NCBI GenBank assembly: GCA_016873655.1
Contig: VGWI01000003.1
Location: 1,737 to 65,736 of the forward strand
From: Lentisphaerota bacterium
GTDB taxonomy: Bacteria > Verrucomicrobiota > Kiritimatiellia > UBA8416 > VGWI01
Reading direction: 5' to 3'
Length of the DNA: 64,000 nt
Notes under the pieces: generated by a model
Told to the model about the DNA's origin: nothing
The model's database searches: none
The model's input: only the letters and a program-made list of their open reading frames with translations
Shown here: one piece after another, positions 26,387 to 33,963 of the stretch
Layout of the letters: the number at the start of each line of letters is the position of its first letter
Numbering within the stretch: the stretch's first letter is position 1
Program-made: the position numbers and the translations under genes

Positions 26387-27295
26387 ATGACAGGTCCAGC
26401 GTCACTTGAGATTCTCCGGACCAGGTCCGGGGCCTGCCGCGCAGTACGGGATTTCTTCTTCTCCAGGGATTTCATCGAAGTCGACACTCCCGTCCGCATT
26501 CCCTCGCCCGCTCCGGAAGAACACATAGAAGCAGAACCGGCCGGAGACTGGTTCCTGAGAACCTCGCCGGAACTGCAGATGAAACGCCTGCTTGCCGCGG
26601 GAGCGGAACGGGTATTCCAGCTTGGCCCGTGCTTCAGGCGTGACGAATCCGGACCCATGCACAACCCGGAATTCACCATGCTCGAGTGGTACAGGGCAAA
26701 CGCCGACTACCTCGACATACTCGCGGATACGAAAAGCCTGGTCGCCGCGGTCGCGACCGCCATAACCGGCCGAACAACCGTCAGCCGGCACGGCCGGGTG
26801 ATCGAACTGATGCCCTGCTGGGAGATAATCACCGTCCGGGACGCCTTCCTCGAATGGGCCGGGTGGGATCCGCTGCGCGACCAGGACCCGGATCGCTTCG
26901 ACATGGATCTCGTGTGCAAGGTGGAACCGCGCATCGCCGAACGGGATCACCCGGTGATCCTCAAGGACTACCCGGTCCACGGGGCCGCCCTGGCCCGGTG
27001 CCGGCAGGACGACCCGCCGTGCGCTGAGCGCTGGGAGCTCTACATAGCCGGGATCGAACTGGCCAACGCCTTCAGCGAACTCACCGATGCATCGGAACAG
27101 CGCCGCCGGTTCGAGACGGCAACGGCGGCACGGACGGCGCGCGGCATGGCCGAATACCCGCCGGACGCGGATTTCCTGGAGGATCTTGACCGGGGACGCA
27201 TGCCGCGCGCGGGCGGAATCGCTCTCGGCATGGACCGGCTTGTGATGCTGCTGGCGGCGGCGCCGGATGTCGCGTCAGTCCGCGGCTTCGTCTGA
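26387..27295 (+). CDS. epmA: EF-P-lysine lysyltransferase EpmA (PoxA/GenX, truncated class-II LysRS paralog)
   Basis: Class II aaRS motifs (FQLGPCFRRDE, NPEFTMLEWY, GIALGMDRLVM). Directly downstream of efp. Confidence 0.85.
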   Translation: MTGPASLEILRTRSGACRAVRDFFFSRDFIEVDTPVRIPSPAPEEHIEAEPAGDWFLRTSPELQMKRLLAAGAERVFQLGPCFRRDESGPMHNPEFTMLEWYRANADYLDILADTKSLVAAVATAITGRTTVSRHGRVIELMPCWEIITVRDAFLEWAGWDPLRDQDPDRFDMDLVCKVEPRIAERDHPVILKDYPVHGAALARCRQDDPPCAERWELYIAGIELANAFSELTDASEQRRRFETATAARTARGMAEYPPDADFLEDLDRGRMPRAGGIALGMDRLVMLLAAAPDVASVRGFV

Positions 27296-28321
27296 TCCGG
27301 GCCCGGCAGCTTCCTCGTTCGCCATGTCGGATATGCGGCGCTTTATCTCGGTCTTGACCCGCTCCGCACCGTCGCCGGTGAAGGCGGATATCGGAACAGG
27401 GTCCAGCCCGGCTTCATCACGAAGTCTCTTCAACCCTTCCGCCGCATCGGGAAGATCCATCTTGTTGGCGACCACGAAAAACGGCCTGTCCGCAAGCGAC
27501 TCCTCGTGAAAGGTGATTTCCTTACGCAGGGATTCGTAGTCGGCAACCGGGTCTCGCCCGTCCACCCCCGCCGCGTCGAGCACGTAGATGAGAAAACGCG
27601 ACCGCTCGATGTGCCGGAGGAACCGGAGCCCCAGCCCTACCCCGTCGTGCGCGCCTTTCACGATTCCCGGTATGTCCGCAACCCGCACACGCGTGAAATC
27701 GTCGAACACGACGGTGCCTATCACCGGGTTCAGGGTCGTGAACGGGTACGCCGCCACCTTCGGATGCGCGTCGCTGATGGCTGCCAGCAGCGATGACTTC
27801 CCGGCGTTCGGATAGCCGACAAGCCCGACATCGGCGACGATCTTCAACGAAAGCCTGAGCTGGAACTCCTCACCCTGAATGCCGTCGGTGTGCTGCATCG
27901 GAACCTGGTTCGTGGGAGAGCGCCAGTGCCAGTTCCCGCGCCCGCCGCGCCCGCCGCGGGCAACCATCAGCTCGGCGCCTTCCTCGACGATTTCGCCCGT
28001 CACTTCGCCGGTGCTCTCGTCGCGCACTTCGGTGCCGCACGGAACCTTGAGGACCAGATCGCTCCCGTCCGCGCCGTGCTTCTGCGCGCCGCGGCCCTTC
28101 CCGCCGTGCTCGGCCTTCTGCTCGGGCGCGTAGTGCAGGGCTATAAGTGAATCGGTTTCCCGGTCGGCCCTGAGGATGATGTGCCCGCCACGGCCGCCGT
28201 CACCGCCGTCAGGTCCGCCCTTGGGAACGTACTTCTCGCGACGGAAACTCACCGCCCCGTCGCCGCCGTTGCCGGCTTTGACGCGGATCACGACCTCGTC
28301 TATGAAGGTCCTGCCCTTCAC
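27275..28321 (-). CDS. obg: GTPase Obg/CgtA
   Basis: N-terminal Gly-rich Obg fold (GGDGGRGG...) and G-domain motifs GYPNAGKSS, DIPG, NKMD. Confidence 0.9.
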   Translation of the reverse strand: MKGRTFIDEVVIRVKAGNGGDGAVSFRREKYVPKGGPDGGDGGRGGHIILRADRETDSLIALHYAPEQKAEHGGKGRGAQKHGADGSDLVLKVPCGTEVRDESTGEVTGEIVEEGAELMVARGGRGGRGNWHWRSPTNQVPMQHTDGIQGEEFQLRLSLKIVADVGLVGYPNAGKSSLLAAISDAHPKVAAYPFTTLNPVIGTVVFDDFTRVRVADIPGIVKGAHDGVGLGLRFLRHIERSRFLIYVLDAAGVDGRDPVADYESLRKEITFHEESLADRPFFVVANKMDLPDAAEGLKRLRDEAGLDPVPISAFTGDGAERVKTEIKRRISDMANEEAAGPGSDEAAD

Positions 28322-28397
28322 GGTGAAACCCGCATGGAACCCGCGGCAACCCGAAGCGGGCTATGCAACGCGACGGACGGAAGAAAGGAGGCCGGGC

Positions 28398-28652
28398 TCA
28401 ATTCGCCGCTGCCGGCTCCATGATGCTGATGCGTTTGCCGCCCTTGTCGAACCGGACCGTCCCGGCACACAGCGCGAAGAGCGTGTCGTCCTTGCCGCGC
28501 TTGACGTTCGGGCCGGGCAGGAACTTGGTTCCACGCTGCCGAACAAGAATTGAACCGGCCGTGACAAACTGTCCGTCGTGACGCTTCACGCAGAGCCGCT
28601 TGCCGATACTGTCCCGGCCGTTACGACCCGCACCGCTTGCCTTGGAAGCCAT
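28398..28652 (-). CDS. rpmA: 50S ribosomal protein L27
   Basis: [44 protein letters not shown]... canonical L27. Confidence 0.9.
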
Positions 28653-28677
28653 AGGATTCCCCTTTCCGGATCGCGCA

Positions 28678-28998
28678 TCAGGCGCGGTTCAGGGCCTCGA
28701 CCTTGAGCACCGTAAGATCCTGGCGGTGGCCGATCTTCCTGGCGTAGCCCTTGCGACGCTTCTTCTTGTACGAAACCAGCTTCGGACCGCGCTTGTGTTC
28801 GACAACCGAGCACGCCACGCTGGCCCCGCTGACTTCCGGCTTGCCGATGACGATGTCCTTGCCGTCGGAAACCGCCAGCACCGGCGCCAGATCAACCTTG
28901 CCGCCGGCCTCGGCCTCGATGCGATTCACTTCGAGGACGTCCCCGGCCTTCACCAGGTACTGCCTGCCGCTCGTCTCCACAATTGCGTACGATTCCAT
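28678..28998 (-). CDS. rplU: 50S ribosomal protein L21
   Basis: [22 protein letters not shown]... from the internal ATG 28998. In rplU-rpmA-obg order. Confidence 0.9.
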
Positions 28999-29169
28999 GG
29001 TTCTCTCTCTTCCAATATGCCCCGCCCAGGCAGCCGAATCTCGGGCTCGCCGTCCGGAAAAACCGGCGCACAATAGATGCCGGCGCTCCACATGTCAACA
29101 CCGATCAGACTTGCCCCCGCTCCCGGCCCCGGCCGCAGCCGGGGCGTTCACGGCGCCGGGCAAGCCCCG

Positions 29170-29799
29170 TCAGATTCCCAGTATCGGATCCAGCTCGACC
29201 GCGATCTCGGCCATGTCCTTCGCGGCGTCTATGTCAGCCAGCAGCTTCCTGCTCGCGTAGAAGGAGATAAGCGGTTCGGTCTGGCGCCTGTACACCTCCA
29301 GCCTGTTCGCGATCGCCTCGGGCTTGTCATCATCGCGCTGAAGCAGGTCTTCCGGCTTCATGTCAGAAGTCGGGGCCGGGTAGCCGCCCGGGTTGACGTT
29401 GTATATCCGACCGGTCTTCTTATGAATGCGCCGACCGGAAAGCCGCCGGATAACCACCTCATCCTTGATCCTGAAATTGATCACCTTGTCTATCTGTACC
29501 CCGGCCGCCTCGAGCGCTTCGGCCTGCGGGATGGTGCGGGGAAACCCGTCCAGAATGAATCCCCTGGCGCAGTCCGACCGCGCGATCCGGTCCTTCAAGA
29601 GCCCTATCACGAGAGCGTCTGGCACAAGCTCGCCGGCATCCATGTAGGACTTGGCCTTCTTCCCGAGCTCCGTGCCGTTTTTCACGGCCTCACGGAGAAG
29701 ATCACCGGTCGATATCTGGACCACGCCGGTCTTCTGTGTAACGTGATGGGCCACTGTGCCTTTGCCGGCGCCCGGCGGTCCGAGAAAGATGAGTCTCAT
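29170..29799 (-). CDS. adk: Adenylate kinase
   Basis: MRLIFLGPPGAGKGT P-loop and a short LID (no Zn cysteines). 209 aa. Confidence 0.9.
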   Translation of the reverse strand: MRLIFLGPPGAGKGTVAHHVTQKTGVVQISTGDLLREAVKNGTELGKKAKSYMDAGELVPDALVIGLLKDRIARSDCARGFILDGFPRTIPQAEALEAAGVQIDKVINFRIKDEVVIRRLSGRRIHKKTGRIYNVNPGGYPAPTSDMKPEDLLQRDDDKPEAIANRLEVYRRQTEPLISFYASRKLLADIDAAKDMAEIAVELDPILGI

Positions 29800-29935
29800 T
29801 CGTGCCGTCTCCTTGCAGGTCGCTCCAAATCACAAAGGGCTGAAGCTTCGCACGTAACGCACCCGCGAGTCAACGCGCTGTTTAACGAGCCCGCCGTACT
29901 CGTGCCGCGCGAACCGCGGCAGGACAGCAAGCCGA

Positions 29936-30181
29936 TCAGGCGGCGGGCTCCATTGGCACACCGCAGCAGAATGGTTCGAACTTCCCGTTGACGCGCTGGA
30001 ACGACGCGACTTCGGCCTTGCAGATCGGGCACACGTAGAAACGCGCTTTCCTGCGCAGCGGCAGCATGTCGGTGTTGCAGCAATGCGGGTCAAAATCGCC
30101 GGCCCCGCCGTTCACCACGAAAAGCTCGGCTCCGCATACGGGACAGCGGTATACGGTTCCGCGGGAAGCAGGCCCGCTCAC
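29936..30181 (-). CDS. Tandem desulforedoxin-like (CxxCG...CC) double-module mini-protein (about 81 aa)
   Basis: Two modules: YRCPVCGAELFVVNGGAGDFDPHCCNTDM and YVCPICKAEVASFQRVNGKFEPFCCGVPM. GTG start at 30181 overlaps the stop of the preceding Dx gene (GTGA). The upstream part of the listed 134-aa ORF overlaps that gene out of frame. Confidence 0.45.
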   Translation of the reverse strand: MSGPASRGTVYRCPVCGAELFVVNGGAGDFDPHCCNTDMLPLRRKARFYVCPICKAEVASFQRVNGKFEPFCCGVPMEPAA

Positions 30182-30390
30182 TGCGCCGCTCCGCCATGTC
30201 TCGCCGACATCGGTTCCATCGGCCTGCCGCAACAGGCGAGTTCCATCACACCCACCCCGCCCTTGCTGACCATCGCCATGGCGCCGCATTTCTTGCAGCC
30301 ATACGCGACGCCGACGTTGATCGTCAACGCGCTTTCCCATTCGGTCAGGTCCCAGTCGGGCTGCTGTTCGTCAATAGGTTCGCTTTCCAT
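30178..30390 (-). CDS. Desulforedoxin-like (CxxCG...CC) single-module protein (70 aa)
   Basis: ATG 30390 preceded by AAGGAG at 5 nt. Module YGCKKCGAMAMVSKGGVGVMELACCGRPM matches the desulforedoxin Fe(Cys)4 pattern (C-x2-C-G ... C-C-G-x-x-M). Confidence 0.6.
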   Translation of the reverse strand: MESEPIDEQQPDWDLTEWESALTINVGVAYGCKKCGAMAMVSKGGVGVMELACCGRPMEPMSARHGGAAQ

Positions 30391-30593
30391 TGCGCTCCTT
30401 TCACACCCATCCCGCGCCGACGCGCGGGATGAACTGCCTGCATGATAACCGCACCCGCCTGCCCTGTGAAGCCAGTATCGGAGAACCTGTCAACGCCGCC
30501 GGCACGCAAGGAATCCAGCCGGACGGCAGCCGTATCGTCTTGCTATCTCATGAAGGAATTCCTAATAAGACAGCCTGGAGCGGGAGGAGTGCC

Positions 30594-31223
30594 ATGAATG
30601 CATTGATCGGCTGGTGGGCAGGCCTGACGGTTCTTAACCAGTGTTTCTACGGCGCGGCTTCCTTCTTCGCCGTGGTCTTCGTCTGGCAACTCGCTTCCGC
30701 CCTGATGGGGATCGGAAGCGAAGACGACCTCGACGCCGGGCCGGACGACGCCGCGGATCACCCGGTTGACGGCGACGCGCACGATACGGTCTTTGCGTTC
30801 CAGCTCATCAGCGTGCGTTCAATCATCGCCTTCTGCACACTCTTCACATGGGCCGTCTCCCTTCACCTGAATAACGGCGCGGCAGTTCGCCACGCGCTCG
30901 TGTTCGGCCTGTTGTGGGGCACCGGGGCCATGTTCATAGTATCGCTCATCCCGGCTGTAATGCGCAGGCTGACCGAAACCGGGAACCTGAAGATCGCGTC
31001 CTGCGTCGGCTCACGGGGCGCCGTGTACGGCGACATACCCGAGAGCGGCGTTGGCGAGGTGCGCGTCTCCTGCAACGGGGTCCTGACACACCTCCGCGCC
31101 CGGACCGTTGACGGCCGGCCGCTTCGCTCCGGCACTTCCGTAACAGTCGTCAGGGTTCTTGAATCGAATACCATCGAAGTGAAGTGCGACAAGCCCTCGG
31201 GCGCGAAGGAGGATCAGCAGTGA
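30594..31223 (+). CDS. NfeD-family membrane protein (partner of SPFH/flotillin)
   Basis: ATG 30594 after a GGGAGGAG SD. N-terminal TM helices plus a C-terminal OB-fold beta domain (GEVRVSCNGVLTHLRARTVDGRPLRSGTSVTVVRVLESNTIEVK). Stop overlaps the flotillin GTG start (GTGA). Confidence 0.7.
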   Translation: MNALIGWWAGLTVLNQCFYGAASFFAVVFVWQLASALMGIGSEDDLDAGPDDAADHPVDGDAHDTVFAFQLISVRSIIAFCTLFTWAVSLHLNNGAAVRHALVFGLLWGTGAMFIVSLIPAVMRRLTETGNLKIASCVGSRGAVYGDIPESGVGEVRVSCNGVLTHLRARTVDGRPLRSGTSVTVVRVLESNTIEVKCDKPSGAKEDQQ

Positions 31224-32782
31224 ACCAGTATTTTATCGCATCTCTCGGCGCGGTGACGCAGGTGCAGGGCCGCATCCCGACCGGACTGGTGCTCGGCCCG
31301 ATGCTTGCCCTCATCGCGCTCGTTCTCATCGTCACTTTCATCCGCCGGTACAGGCGCTGCCCGTCCAACAGGATACTCGTGATATACGGGAAGACCGGCA
31401 GCGGCGCGGCGCGTTGCATTCACGGCGGCGCGGCGTTCATCTGGCCGCTCATCCAGTCCTACGACTACCTCGATCTCGAACCCTTCGTCGTGCCGATTGA
31501 CCTGTCGAACGCACTCTCGCAGGAGAACATCCGCGTTACGGTGCCGACAACCGTCACCGCGGCAATCTCGTACCAGCCTGGAGTCATGGAGAACGCGGCC
31601 ATCCGCCTCCTCGGCCTGACCACTCAGCAGATACAGGCACAGGCGCAGGACATTATCATCGGCCAGATGCGCGCCGTCATCGCCACGATGAAGATCGAGG
31701 ACATCAACCGCGACCGGCAGGCGTTCATGGCGAAGGTGAATGAGGCGCTCGCGGTGGAACTCGAGAAGATCGGCCTGGGATTGATCAACGTCAACATCCG
31801 CGACATTGACGATGAGTCCGGGTACATCAAGGCAATCGGCAGAAAGGCCGCCGCGGAAGCGGTGAACCAGGCTAACATCGACGTGGCGGAACAGGAGAAA
31901 CTCGGACAGACCGGTGTGGCCGAACGCCAGCGCGACCAGAGAATCGCGGTCTCGGCCGCAACCGCGGAAGCCGAGATCGGCGAGGCCGAGGCCGCGAAGA
32001 AGAGACGCCAGAAAGTCGCCGCCGCCGTCGCCGAGGCGGAAATAGGCGAAGCTGCCGCAAGCCGCGACAAACGCCAGCAGACGGCAAAACTGGACGCTGA
32101 AGCGGTCGGTGCCGAAACCGCGGCAAATGCGCAGAAGGCCGGCTACAAGGCGAATCAGCGCGTCGCGGAAGAGGAGTCCAGGAACAAGGGCGAATCCGCT
32201 TCCCGCGAGGCGGACGGCGCGATCCGCGTGGCTCAGGAAACCGCCCAGAAGAAGGCCGAGGAGGCAAAGGCCCTGCGCGAACAGGCGCGCCTGAACGCGG
32301 AAGTCGTCGTCCCGGCGGAGGCCGAACGCAAGAAGATCGTTATCGCCTCCGAGGCGGAGAAGCAGCAGGCGGTTCTGATAGCTCAGGGGCAGGCCGAAGC
32401 AACCCTGGCGAAGATGCGCGCCGAAGGCGAAGGCACACAGGCCGTGCTCGACGGAAAGTCGGCAGGGTACAGGAACCTGGTCCAGTCGGCCGGGGACCCG
32501 AAGGTCGCGACATCCCTCCTCCTTATCGAGAAACTGCTCGAGATATCTCACGTGCAGGCGAAGGCGATCCAGGACCTGCCGCTGGAGAAGATCATCGTCT
32601 GGGACGGAGGCGCCGGCAACGGGCTCGACGGGCTCGGGAAGAGACTCATGGGCGTTCTTCCTCCGATGCACGAACTGGCAAAGCAGGCGGGCCTGGATCT
32701 GCCCGAGTTTCTGGGCCGGGTGGCCGATTCGGAAAAAACCGGCACGATCGGCCAGGAAACGCCGAAGCAGCCCGGGAAATGA
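31220..32782 (+). CDS. Flotillin-like SPFH/band-7 protein (FloT/YuaG type)
   Basis: GTG start with an AAGGAGG SD. N-terminal TM, SPFH domain and a long Ala/Glu-rich coiled-coil region (flotillin EA repeats: AEAEIGEAEAAKKRRQ...). Confidence 0.85.
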   Translation: MNQYFIASLGAVTQVQGRIPTGLVLGPMLALIALVLIVTFIRRYRRCPSNRILVIYGKTGSGAARCIHGGAAFIWPLIQSYDYLDLEPFVVPIDLSNALSQENIRVTVPTTVTAAISYQPGVMENAAIRLLGLTTQQIQAQAQDIIIGQMRAVIATMKIEDINRDRQAFMAKVNEALAVELEKIGLGLINVNIRDIDDESGYIKAIGRKAAAEAVNQANIDVAEQEKLGQTGVAERQRDQRIAVSAATAEAEIGEAEAAKKRRQKVAAAVAEAEIGEAAASRDKRQQTAKLDAEAVGAETAANAQKAGYKANQRVAEEESRNKGESASREADGAIRVAQETAQKKAEEAKALREQARLNAEVVVPAEAERKKIVIASEAEKQQAVLIAQGQAEATLAKMRAEGEGTQAVLDGKSAGYRNLVQSAGDPKVATSLLLIEKLLEISHVQAKAIQDLPLEKIIVWDGGAGNGLDGLGKRLMGVLPPMHELAKQAGLDLPEFLGRVADSEKTGTIGQETPKQPGK

Positions 32783-32823
32783 CCCGCGCACGCCGTATCC
32801 CGGCCTGACGCGCAGCACAAGGC

Positions 32824-33963
32824 ATGAGCCTCAAGGTTCGCACAGATATCCCATACGGGAATGCATGCGCCGTGGAAGTGGCGTCCGGCGGAGACATGCC
32901 GGAAGTCCGGTTCGCGGCGTCCCCGCGCGGCGGACCGGAGTCGCTTTGGTTCTGCTTCCGCGTCGTCGAATCCAACCCGGCCGCCTCGCAGGAGCAAGGC
33001 AAGGTAAGGGTTACCCTCCGCTTTTTCGACAATGTGCTCGGCGCCGGGGCGGGCGCCGACCTCGCGCCGGTGTTCAGACCGTCCGGCCAGGGCTGGCACC
33101 GCATGTCCGGCGGGGTGACATCGCTTTCCGAAACCGGACACTGCGCCGTATCATGGACTATCCCGCACCCCGCGCCCGAAACGGATGTGGCCCTTTGCTT
33201 CCCGTACGGCGAGGAGGACGCGGCTGCACTGGTCGCGAAGTCGAAGGGATCCTGGAAGACCGAGGAAATCGGGGTCAGCACCGGCGGAAGGCCGATCGTG
33301 CGCCTGTTCACCGACTCCGGCGAACCGAACGGAACACGGCAGGGCATCTACCTGGTCGCGCGCCAGCACGCGGGGGAAACCCCCGGCTCATGGGTGCTTG
33401 ACGGATTGATGCAGCAGCTTTCAAAAAGCCGGCGCTCGCCGTTCGTCGTCTGGGCGGTGCCGCTCCTGGATGCGGACGGTGTGGCCGCTGGCGAGTACGG
33501 CAAGGACAACTTCCCGTGCGACTTCAACCGCGCCTGGGGCCTGCCCCCGATGCGCCACGAAGTGCTCGCGGTGCAGCGCGACATAGCGCTGTGGCAAACG
33601 CGCTGCAAACCGGTGCTAGCCCTCGATTTTCACGCCCCCGGGGCATGCGAAACGGACGGCGTCTACGCGCTCCTCCCGAACGAGGAGAAGTTACCCGACG
33701 CCTTCAGGGCGGCCGAGAAGTGGGCAAACGTCATCCAGCAGGATCTCGGCGAATTCGCCGCTGGGAACTTCAAAAGACAGGCCGCTTGCCCGTCAAGATG
33801 GGACGGGGCGACTTTCACAACCTACATGGCATCCATTCTCTCGATCCCGGCCCTGGCGCTGGAAATACCCTACTCGCGCGCCGGCACAACCGTCCTGGCC
33901 CAGCGCCAGTACCGGGACATCGGCGCACGCCTCGCCACAGCGCTGATGCACAAGGTTCAGTAA
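32824..33963 (+). CDS. M14-family zinc carboxypeptidase-like protein
   Basis: 379 aa; IYLVARQHAGETPGSWVLDGLM resembles the M14 HxxE zinc-binding region. Confidence 0.55.
   Translation: MSLKVRTDIPYGNACAVEVASGGDMPEVRFAASPRGGPESLWFCFRVVESNPAASQEQGKVRVTLRFFDNVLGAGAGADLAPVFRPSGQGWHRMSGGVTSLSETGHCAVSWTIPHPAPETDVALCFPYGEEDAAALVAKSKGSWKTEEIGVSTGGRPIVRLFTDSGEPNGTRQGIYLVARQHAGETPGSWVLDGLMQQLSKSRRSPFVVWAVPLLDADGVAAGEYGKDNFPCDFNRAWGLPPMRHEVLAVQRDIALWQTRCKPVLALDFHAPGACETDGVYALLPNEEKLPDAFRAAEKWANVIQQDLGEFAAGNFKRQAACPSRWDGATFTTYMASILSIPALALEIPYSRAGTTVLAQRQYRDIGARLATALMHKVQ

Follow-up and report, generated by a model that had tools for sequence, protein, structure and literature searches.

So far, metal centres of the desulforedoxin type have been described in a single free-standing protein, found in sulfate reducers, and in domains attached to superoxide reductase or to rubrerythrin. 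Here we describe a pair of overlapping mini-genes, gene 1 and gene 2, on the minus strand of a 64-kb stretch of a metagenome-assembled genome (MAG) from the Lentisphaerota (assembly GCA_016873655.1, contig VGWI01000003.1, positions 1,737 to 65,736; this whole stretch is hereafter the window). Together they encode three free-standing modules of this type, one in the product of gene 1 and two, in tandem, in that of gene 2. Elsewhere in its family the pair often adjoins genes for enzymes that detoxify NO and O2, which suggests that it is probably their electron supplier.

Rubredoxins are known electron donors of class A flavodiiron proteins (FDPs), as with the rd-roo operon of Desulfovibrio gigas, where a rubredoxin gene lies beside an FDP gene, and the rubredoxin domain of E. 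coli NorV. A class A FDP consists of the two core domains only; the direct electron donor of several FDPs is a rubredoxin, itself reduced by an NAD(P)H:rubredoxin oxidoreductase (PMC6033852). The electron donor of the class I hybrid-cluster protein (Hcp) is called open in the literature; its gene usually lacks informative neighbours (PMC10210160).

Results

The initial annotation of this DNA had proposed three desulforedoxin-like modules in two overlapping mini-genes; we found the two open reading frames (ORFs) exactly where it placed them (Table 1), with family profiles and predicted structures in agreement. Gene 1 encodes 70 residues (MESEPIDEQQPDWDLTEWESALTINVGVAYGCKKCGAMAMVSKGGVGVMELACCGRPMEPMSARHGGAAQ) behind an AAGGAG Shine-Dalgarno sequence, and gene 2 encodes 81 residues ((V/M)SGPASRGTVYRCPVCGAELFVVNGGAGDFDPHCCNTDMLPLRRKARFYVCPICKAEVASFQRVNGKFEPFCCGVPMEPAA) from a GTG start that overlaps the TGA of gene 1 as GTGA, both as that annotation had read them. 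All three modules share the form C-x2-C-x17-C-C-x3-M; the more detailed pattern first suggested, C-x2-C-G...C-C-G-x-x-M, is exact for module 1 and has to be relaxed for module 2a, which has N after CC, and for module 2b, which has K after CxxC, a position at which most homologues have G. The core of the motif, C-x2-C-x17-CC, occurs three times in the six-frame translation of the window, solely in these modules, against an expectation of 0.045 per window; none of 200 sequences simulated under a first-order Markov model of the window contained three copies. Ahead of its module, the gene 1 protein carries an N-terminal extension with a conserved DW-L-EW-x-AL-I-VG motif and a predicted helix at residues 15-22.

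We found that JGI gene calls on near-identical metagenome contigs give identical 70- and 81-residue products. The exact proteins are present in JGI/IMG and Logan calls and absent from the NCBI proteins of this MAG, bearing out the earlier remark that small cysteine-rich ORFs are easy to miss; since adk (MBM4147684.1) and ObgE (MBM4147681.1) of the same MAG are present as exact NCBI proteins labelled Lentisphaerae/Lentisphaerota, the deposited annotation seems to omit both mini-genes. The case shows how small cysteine-rich genes in GC-rich MAGs may drop out of deposited annotation.

The profile search that the initial annotation had called for placed Pfam Desulfoferrod_N (PF06397) as the top family for both proteins, with all zinc-ribbon models below their thresholds. 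Against a gathering score of 23 bits for PF06397, gene 2 reached 38.7 bits over two stretches, while the gene 1 of this window, at 20.2 bits (E 4.5e-4), fell slightly short; most gene 1 homologues, however, carry a precomputed match to this family. NCBIfam gave the same ranking: the desulfoferrodoxin model TIGR00320 scored 22.7 and 26.1 bits against a cutoff of 146.9, and only its N-terminal 40 or so positions were matched, meaning that the superoxide reductase domain is absent. When family profiles were compared with PDB sequences, desulfoferrodoxin came first and desulforedoxin next, with a best E of about 3e-6 to the desulfoferrodoxin N-terminal domain; these two proteins also ranked first for the gene 1 family profile taken singly. 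Compared with each other, the gene 1 and gene 2 families prove homologous across the module (hhalign probability 97.5%, E 6.5e-12). The domain assignment as such is no novelty, since some JGI records already label homologues of gene 1 'desulfoferrodoxin-like iron-binding protein'.

Predicted structures point the same way. The models of both proteins have the desulforedoxin fold, with desulforedoxin as the best structural match; the prediction for gene 2 is confident, and each of its modules superposes on desulforedoxin at 1.1 Å. Rubredoxin was also considered for gene 2, because a pattern search pairs the CxxCG of module 2a with the CPxC(G) of module 2b at a rubredoxin-like spacing; in rubredoxin two C-x2-C-G knuckles stand about 29 residues apart. 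The Rubredoxin model PF00301 gave gene 2 only 16.5 bits (E 0.0088) against a gathering score of 23 and did not match gene 1; this sub-threshold score, together with the 1.1 Å fit of each module to desulforedoxin, led us to reject the rubredoxin-like reading. Among zinc-ribbon families the highest score belonged to the LysW-type PF21344 (24.7 bits against a gathering score of 27), which covered 17 residues of one CxxC knuckle only; the others scored below PF21344 and below their own cutoffs. By profile and predicted fold, then, modules 1, 2a and 2b are closest to desulforedoxin and the desulfoferrodoxin N-terminal domain and not to an unrelated zinc ribbon, with the CC-x3-M and C-x2-C ligand arrangement present in each, and the two proteins are neither superoxide reductases nor rubredoxins.

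We wondered how widely the pair is distributed. Single-sequence searches had returned 8 and 2 clusters, giving the impression of a very rare family, which proved to be an artefact of word-seeding sensitivity: a gene 1 profile recovered at least 140 clusters at 50% identity, of 64-85 residues, with the consensus DWDLxEWExALTINVGxAYVCRxCGNxVMVTRGGVGVMELxCCGxPME. For gene 2, an exhaustive profile search of 1.84 billion representatives gave 61 matches at E <=1e-10, nearly all of 79-95 residues. The eight cysteines and two methionines of gene 2 are invariant in 56 of 56 homologues, as are the four cysteines of gene 1 in a 35-sequence alignment. A distant gene 1 homologue outside that alignment (L008, 1491-1733) has C-H in place of C-C (...LEPRCHEQAM...), which implies a Cys3His site for this lineage, where the partner protein of gene 2 retains all eight cysteines. 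Scanning species-representative genomes with the 35-sequence alignment yielded 42 loci, all in MAGs, from Lentisphaerae/Victivallales, Kiritimatiellia, Verrucomicrobiota, Planctomycetota (labelled Brocadiaceae/Brocadiia, Phycisphaerae and Planctomycetaceae) and one member of the Thermodesulfobacteriota.

The pairing of the two genes is obligatory. In a reference set of 46 non-redundant loci, a gene 2-type ORF lies directly 3' of gene 1 on the same strand in every case; in a metagenome set of 42 loci, drawn from an independent contig scan, it does so in 40, and the other two end at a contig edge, so that synteny of the pair holds for 86 of 88 loci from several phyla. The initial annotation had called the arrangement unusual: the adjacency to adk is indeed confined to this lineage, and the two-gene arrangement itself recurs throughout the reference set. 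Reference junctions show a 4-base overlap in 28 cases and a 1-base overlap in 7, the remaining 11 ranging from a 14-base overlap to a 3-base gap, and most of the 46 loci share a GGAG or GGAGG-like element, placed as in the window within the 3' end of gene 1. Both ORFs are real genes, coupled in translation. The C-terminal tail of gene 1, which is rich in Gly (consensus ...GGxx; 30182-30200 in the window, and likewise across the loci), coincides with the GGAGG Shine-Dalgarno sequence of gene 2; its composition may therefore reflect the translational signal and not protein function.

The modules fall into three classes. Those of gene 1 average 68% identity among themselves, 43-46% to canonical desulforedoxin and desulfoferrodoxin and 31-32% to gene 2 modules; the two modules of gene 2 are mutually nearest (47%), indicating an old internal duplication. 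Longer proteins exist in metagenomes: P0193 (288 residues) and P0199 (195 residues), both from the exhaustive search, carry several tandem desulforedoxin-type modules, with the profile matching five and three stretches, respectively, each with CxxC...CC and mostly then x3-M, for which 'poly-desulforedoxins' is a possible name. In P0184 a gene 2-like module is fused to another zinc-ribbon domain.

Gene 2 proteins tend to end in Ala-Ala (33 of 44 complete loci and 29 of 56 diverse representatives, with a terminal Ala in 36 of the 56); that of the window ends ...MEPAA, its C-terminus lying at 29936-29944. This end resembles the C-terminal recognition signal for ClpX of the ssrA type, a likeness that would suggest regulated proteolysis.

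Genomic context

To see what the pair accompanies, neighbouring ORFs of the 46 reference loci were clustered and annotated with Pfam and NCBIfam; because longest-ORF calling picked shadow ORFs in GC-rich loci, two gene-calling heuristics were pooled and the choice between calls was left to Pfam and BLAST labels. A single theme recurred. An FDP of about 396-412 residues is directly adjacent on the same strand in 15 of the 46 loci; these FDPs have Lactamase_B/ODP and flavodoxin domains only, which makes them class A, and match the 396-position NCBIfam NO-reductase core model over its full length. An Hcp of 549-551 residues (819 bits to the hydroxylamine reductase model) neighbours the pair in 10 loci by clustering and in 7 by stricter BLAST labelling, with an N-terminal C-x2-C-x8-C-x5-C arrangement that we read as the class I pattern. 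Taken together, FDP and/or Hcp adjoin the pair on the same strand in 20 of the 46. A 4Fe-4S protein, described below, and an Rrf2-family regulator (6/46) are frequent companions, and an HD-domain protein occurs in 4/46. The metagenome set repeats this linkage, with FDP and/or Hcp adjacent on the same strand in 13 of 42 loci, or 6 of 12 among those with enough flank.

The linkage is independent of gene order, which varies from lineage to lineage. Reference loci include FDP>g1>g2, Rrf2>HD>Fer4>g1>g2>FDP>Hcp, Fer4>g1>g2>Hcp, Hcp>g1>g2 and g1>g2>FDP, where g1 and g2 are the pair and Fer4 is a two-[4Fe-4S] ferredoxin-domain protein, and the metagenome set adds Rrf2>Hcp>g1>g2>FDP. No canonical rubredoxin is encoded in the 46 reference loci.

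The ferredoxin-domain protein lies just upstream of the pair in 8 of the 46 loci. Encoded directly 5' of the pair in FDP/Hcp clusters, it has about 248 residues, with the two-[4Fe-4S] ferredoxin domain at its N-terminus and a cysteine-containing C-terminal domain of about 150 residues that matches no Pfam family. We found it upstream of gene 1 in reference loci L012, L026, L028, L029, L032, L042, L043 and L045 and in further loci L068, L071, L072, L074, L077, L078 and L080; it is a candidate reductase for the pair.

Loci that lack FDP and Hcp share no theme beyond lineage-specific synteny. Five of them, from Kiritimatiellia and Verrucomicrobiota (L015, L021, L023, L033 and L047), have the order SDR>HerA>pair on one strand, SDR being a short-chain dehydrogenase and HerA a HerA-like ATPase (HerA_C, E 4e-213); this may be simple lineage synteny.

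In the window itself the pair has no redox-enzyme neighbour: it stands behind a promoter-like site of its own and upstream of adk, which is followed on the same strand by rplU, rpmA and obgE. Searches by tblastn found no FDP, Hcp, Fer4 protein, Rrf2 regulator or HD-domain protein elsewhere in the 64 kb, so the gene for any partner must lie outside the window. The neighbours named in the initial annotation were adk and an NfeD-flotillin operon. Of these, adk downstream and the divergent flotillin/Band_7 gene upstream (31184-32782) are supported; the NfeD label belongs to a 209-residue ORF (30594-31223, plus strand) overlapping the flotillin-like gene at the start of the latter. Neither Pfam nor NCBIfam matches this ORF, even at E 0.1, and it owes the label solely to its position and its membrane-plus-beta-domain appearance. 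A functional link to adk, through a metal-containing lid or a common operon, was considered and rejected: the adk lid here has no cysteines, and adk adjoins the pair in this lineage only (as downstream neighbour in 1 of 106 scanned).

Upstream of gene 1, a sigma-70-like promoter candidate is followed by a perfect inverted repeat that is present as a single copy in the window (0.07 expected by chance with <=3 mismatches allowed). The repeat is possibly an operator or a hairpin in the 5' untranslated region; with no T-run after it, it is not an intrinsic terminator. An Rfam scan of 27000-33000 gave no structured RNA or riboswitch match, and the spacer between gene 2 and adk folds no better than shuffled sequence (z -0.45) and has no terminator-like site.

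Table 1 Features of the mini-gene pair and its immediate surroundings, in window positions.
Feature	Position	Strand	Description
Gene 1	30390..30178	-	ATG start, 70 residues; N-terminal extension and one desulforedoxin-type module
Gene 2	30181..29936	-	GTG start, 81 residues; two desulforedoxin-type modules in tandem, C-terminal -AA
Gene 1 Shine-Dalgarno	30400..30395	-	AAGGAG, 4 bases 5' of the ATG, read from sequence
Gene 2 Shine-Dalgarno	30189..30192	-	GGAG, inside the 3' end of gene 1, 7 nt before the gene 2 start
Module 1	30297..30229	-	gene 1 C32, C35, C53, C54; CKKCG-x16-CCGRPM
Module 2a	30145..30077	-	gene 2 C13, C16, C34, C35; CPVCG-x16-CCNTDM
Module 2b	30031..29963	-	gene 2 C51, C54, C72, C73; CPICK-x16-CCGVPM
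Promoter candidate	30470-30442	-	sigma-70-like, TTCACA-17-TATCAT; 10/12 consensus match, about 50 nt upstream of gene 1; pattern match alone
Inverted repeat	30408..30431		perfect, 10 bp, CATCCCGCGC-N4-GCGCGGGATG; between the -10-like hexamer and the gene 1 Shine-Dalgarno
adk	29799..29170	-	directly downstream of gene 2; context

Discussion

From these modules and their neighbours we infer a working scheme. Each of the three modules would bind one metal, most likely iron, through its four cysteines (C-x2-C ... C-C); the gene 2 protein would be a covalent tandem, in effect a single-chain desulforedoxin dimer, and the conserved helical extension of gene 1 is a possible docking or pairing element. 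The two proteins together would make a small soluble electron carrier in the role of rubredoxin. Electrons would come from an upstream reductase, many relatives encoding the two-[4Fe-4S] ferredoxin-domain protein just before the pair, and would be handed to the class A flavodiiron NO/O2 reductase, possibly also to the class I-like Hcp. On balance, and with moderate confidence, we favour the view that the pair comprises translationally coupled desulforedoxin-type metalloproteins acting as a rubredoxin-like electron carrier for FDP, possibly Hcp. Only tentatively would we go further and picture a dedicated hetero-oligomeric, three-centre desulforedoxin-type electron-transfer complex whose level is set by proteolysis through the Ala-Ala end of gene 2.

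Redox potentials bear on the choice of partner. Known desulforedoxin-like centres lie near 0 mV, though potentials of the rubredoxin type span a wide range (PMC7482061); for the hybrid cluster of class I Hcp, titration gives about -250 to -150 mV (PMC10210160). By analogy, potentials near 0 mV would suit FDP better than the low-potential Hcp cluster.

Several observations weigh against this carrier role. Direct reduction of Hcp from a centre near 0 mV would be uphill unless the centres here are tuned lower. An FDP or Hcp neighbour is lacking in 26 of the 46 reference loci, the window among them, and the neighbours of such loci are heterogeneous (adk, a HerA-like ATPase, a sulfatase, a transporter, queuosine synthesis). 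The cysteine pairs are separated by 17 residues in all three modules and in nearly all homologues, not by the canonical 15, a difference that appears in alignments to desulfoferrodoxin as a 2-residue insertion between the pairs. Confidence in the gene 1 model is only moderate (pLDDT 71.6), and sequence alone does not discriminate iron, zinc or another metal at Cys4 sites.

It is conceivable, if unlikely, that the pair instead senses NO, O2 or iron, acts as a sacrificial scavenger, or donates metal to FDP and Hcp or repairs them; its Fe(Cys)4 sites would then be nitrosylated, oxidised or give up iron before the protein is proteolysed. The frequent Ala-Ala end of gene 2, a putative ClpX degron, would fit such turnover. 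The Rrf2-family regulator, HD-domain protein, Hcp and FDP found with the pair make up a gene set of nitrosative-stress type, and two loci have a hemerythrin-domain neighbour; nickel-substituted rubredoxin is reported to lose its metal on reaction with nitric oxide and nitroxyl (PMC13623106). However, desulforedoxin, the centre I domain of desulfoferrodoxin and the desulforedoxin-like domain of desulforubrerythrin all act in electron transfer, and the tight 1:1 coupling in translation, together with a gene 1 that is very highly conserved, suits a stoichiometric redox partner equally well or better.

It is improbable, too, that the proteins are structural, non-redox zinc ribbons, serving as adaptor, regulator or assembly factor and resembling desulforedoxin only through a shared cysteine-knuckle fold. 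Zinc is often the metal in Cys4 sites of this size, weak sub-threshold matches extend to LysW-type, YacG and further zinc ribbons, and JGI names one gene 2 homologue 'RNA polymerase subunit RPC12/RpoP'; the heterogeneous context of those 26 loci and the housekeeping neighbours in the window would also be at home in this picture. The invariant CC-x3-M signature, the ranking of folds and the redox-enzyme neighbours nonetheless disfavour it. That both ORFs are chance open frames, as GC-rich DNA with its many long spurious ORFs and the absence of the exact proteins from the NCBI set might suggest, is refuted by at least 140 gene 1 and about 60 gene 2 clusters (50% identity) with invariant cysteines, by synteny across phyla, by conserved Shine-Dalgarno sites and start/stop coupling, by a motif far above chance and by a confident structure prediction.

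Full-text literature searches returned no description of a tandem desulforedoxin, no desulforedoxin-like protein beyond the fused domain of desulforubrerythrin, and no link of desulforedoxin to Hcp or FDP donors. The novelty, then, lies in an obligatory two-gene architecture with three centres, largely restricted to the Planctomycetes-Verrucomicrobia-Chlamydiae (PVC) group and linked to FDP and Hcp. To the few desulforedoxin-type proteins already described, the pair adds, from a different part of the bacterial tree, a double desulforedoxin that occurs naturally as one chain, and a single module with an extension. It suggests how anaerobic PVC bacteria with no rubredoxin gene nearby might supply their NO/O2 reductases, that is, a rubredoxin-independent supply of class A FDP, and the order-independent linkage to FDP and Hcp provides testable candidates for the class I Hcp electron donor. 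At only 70 and 81 residues, the proteins should suit expression and spectroscopy.

Comparison with known systems

The closest structural relative of the pair is desulforedoxin of Desulfovibrio gigas (PDB 1dxg, 1cfw), which like the modules here is a unit of about 36 residues with the C-x2-C ... C-C-x3-M signature, and with which they share 36-43% identity. Desulforedoxin is small and soluble and binds one metal per module, and the same would hold for the pair. The Fe(SCys)4 centre of desulforedoxin is a distorted tetrahedron with reversible Fe3+/Fe2+ chemistry and characteristic EPR and UV-visible spectra, the latter with bands near 370 and 507 nm. Desulforedoxin is, however, a homodimer of identical 36-residue chains with a spacing of 15, whereas the modules here are spaced by 17, joined covalently in gene 2, and combined in gene 1 with a conserved extension of about 27 residues, the two proteins always being co-encoded; and desulforedoxin comes from sulfate reducers, the pair from PVC bacteria.

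By sequence profile the best match is instead the centre I domain of desulfoferrodoxin, the 2Fe superoxide reductase (PDB 1dfx, 1vzg, 2ji1), which has 40-46% module identity and a CCN-x2-M signature in common with gene 2 modules; the 70- and 81-residue proteins described here lack its C-terminal catalytic domain, which is of the neelaredoxin type and holds the Fe(His)4Cys site.

In function, the nearest counterpart of the pair would be rubredoxin as donor to class A FDP, a small Fe(Cys)4 carrier encoded beside its FDP (PMC6033852). Fold and cysteine motif differ between the two, and rubredoxin is one protein with one centre where the pair, in a role that we propose from its sequence and gene context, has two proteins and three centres. 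A desulforedoxin-like centre is the electron entry point of an oxidative-stress enzyme in desulforubrerythrin of Campylobacter jejuni (PMC7482061); there the module is fused to rubrerythrin, whereas the modules here are free-standing and encoded, in many relatives, beside FDP and Hcp.
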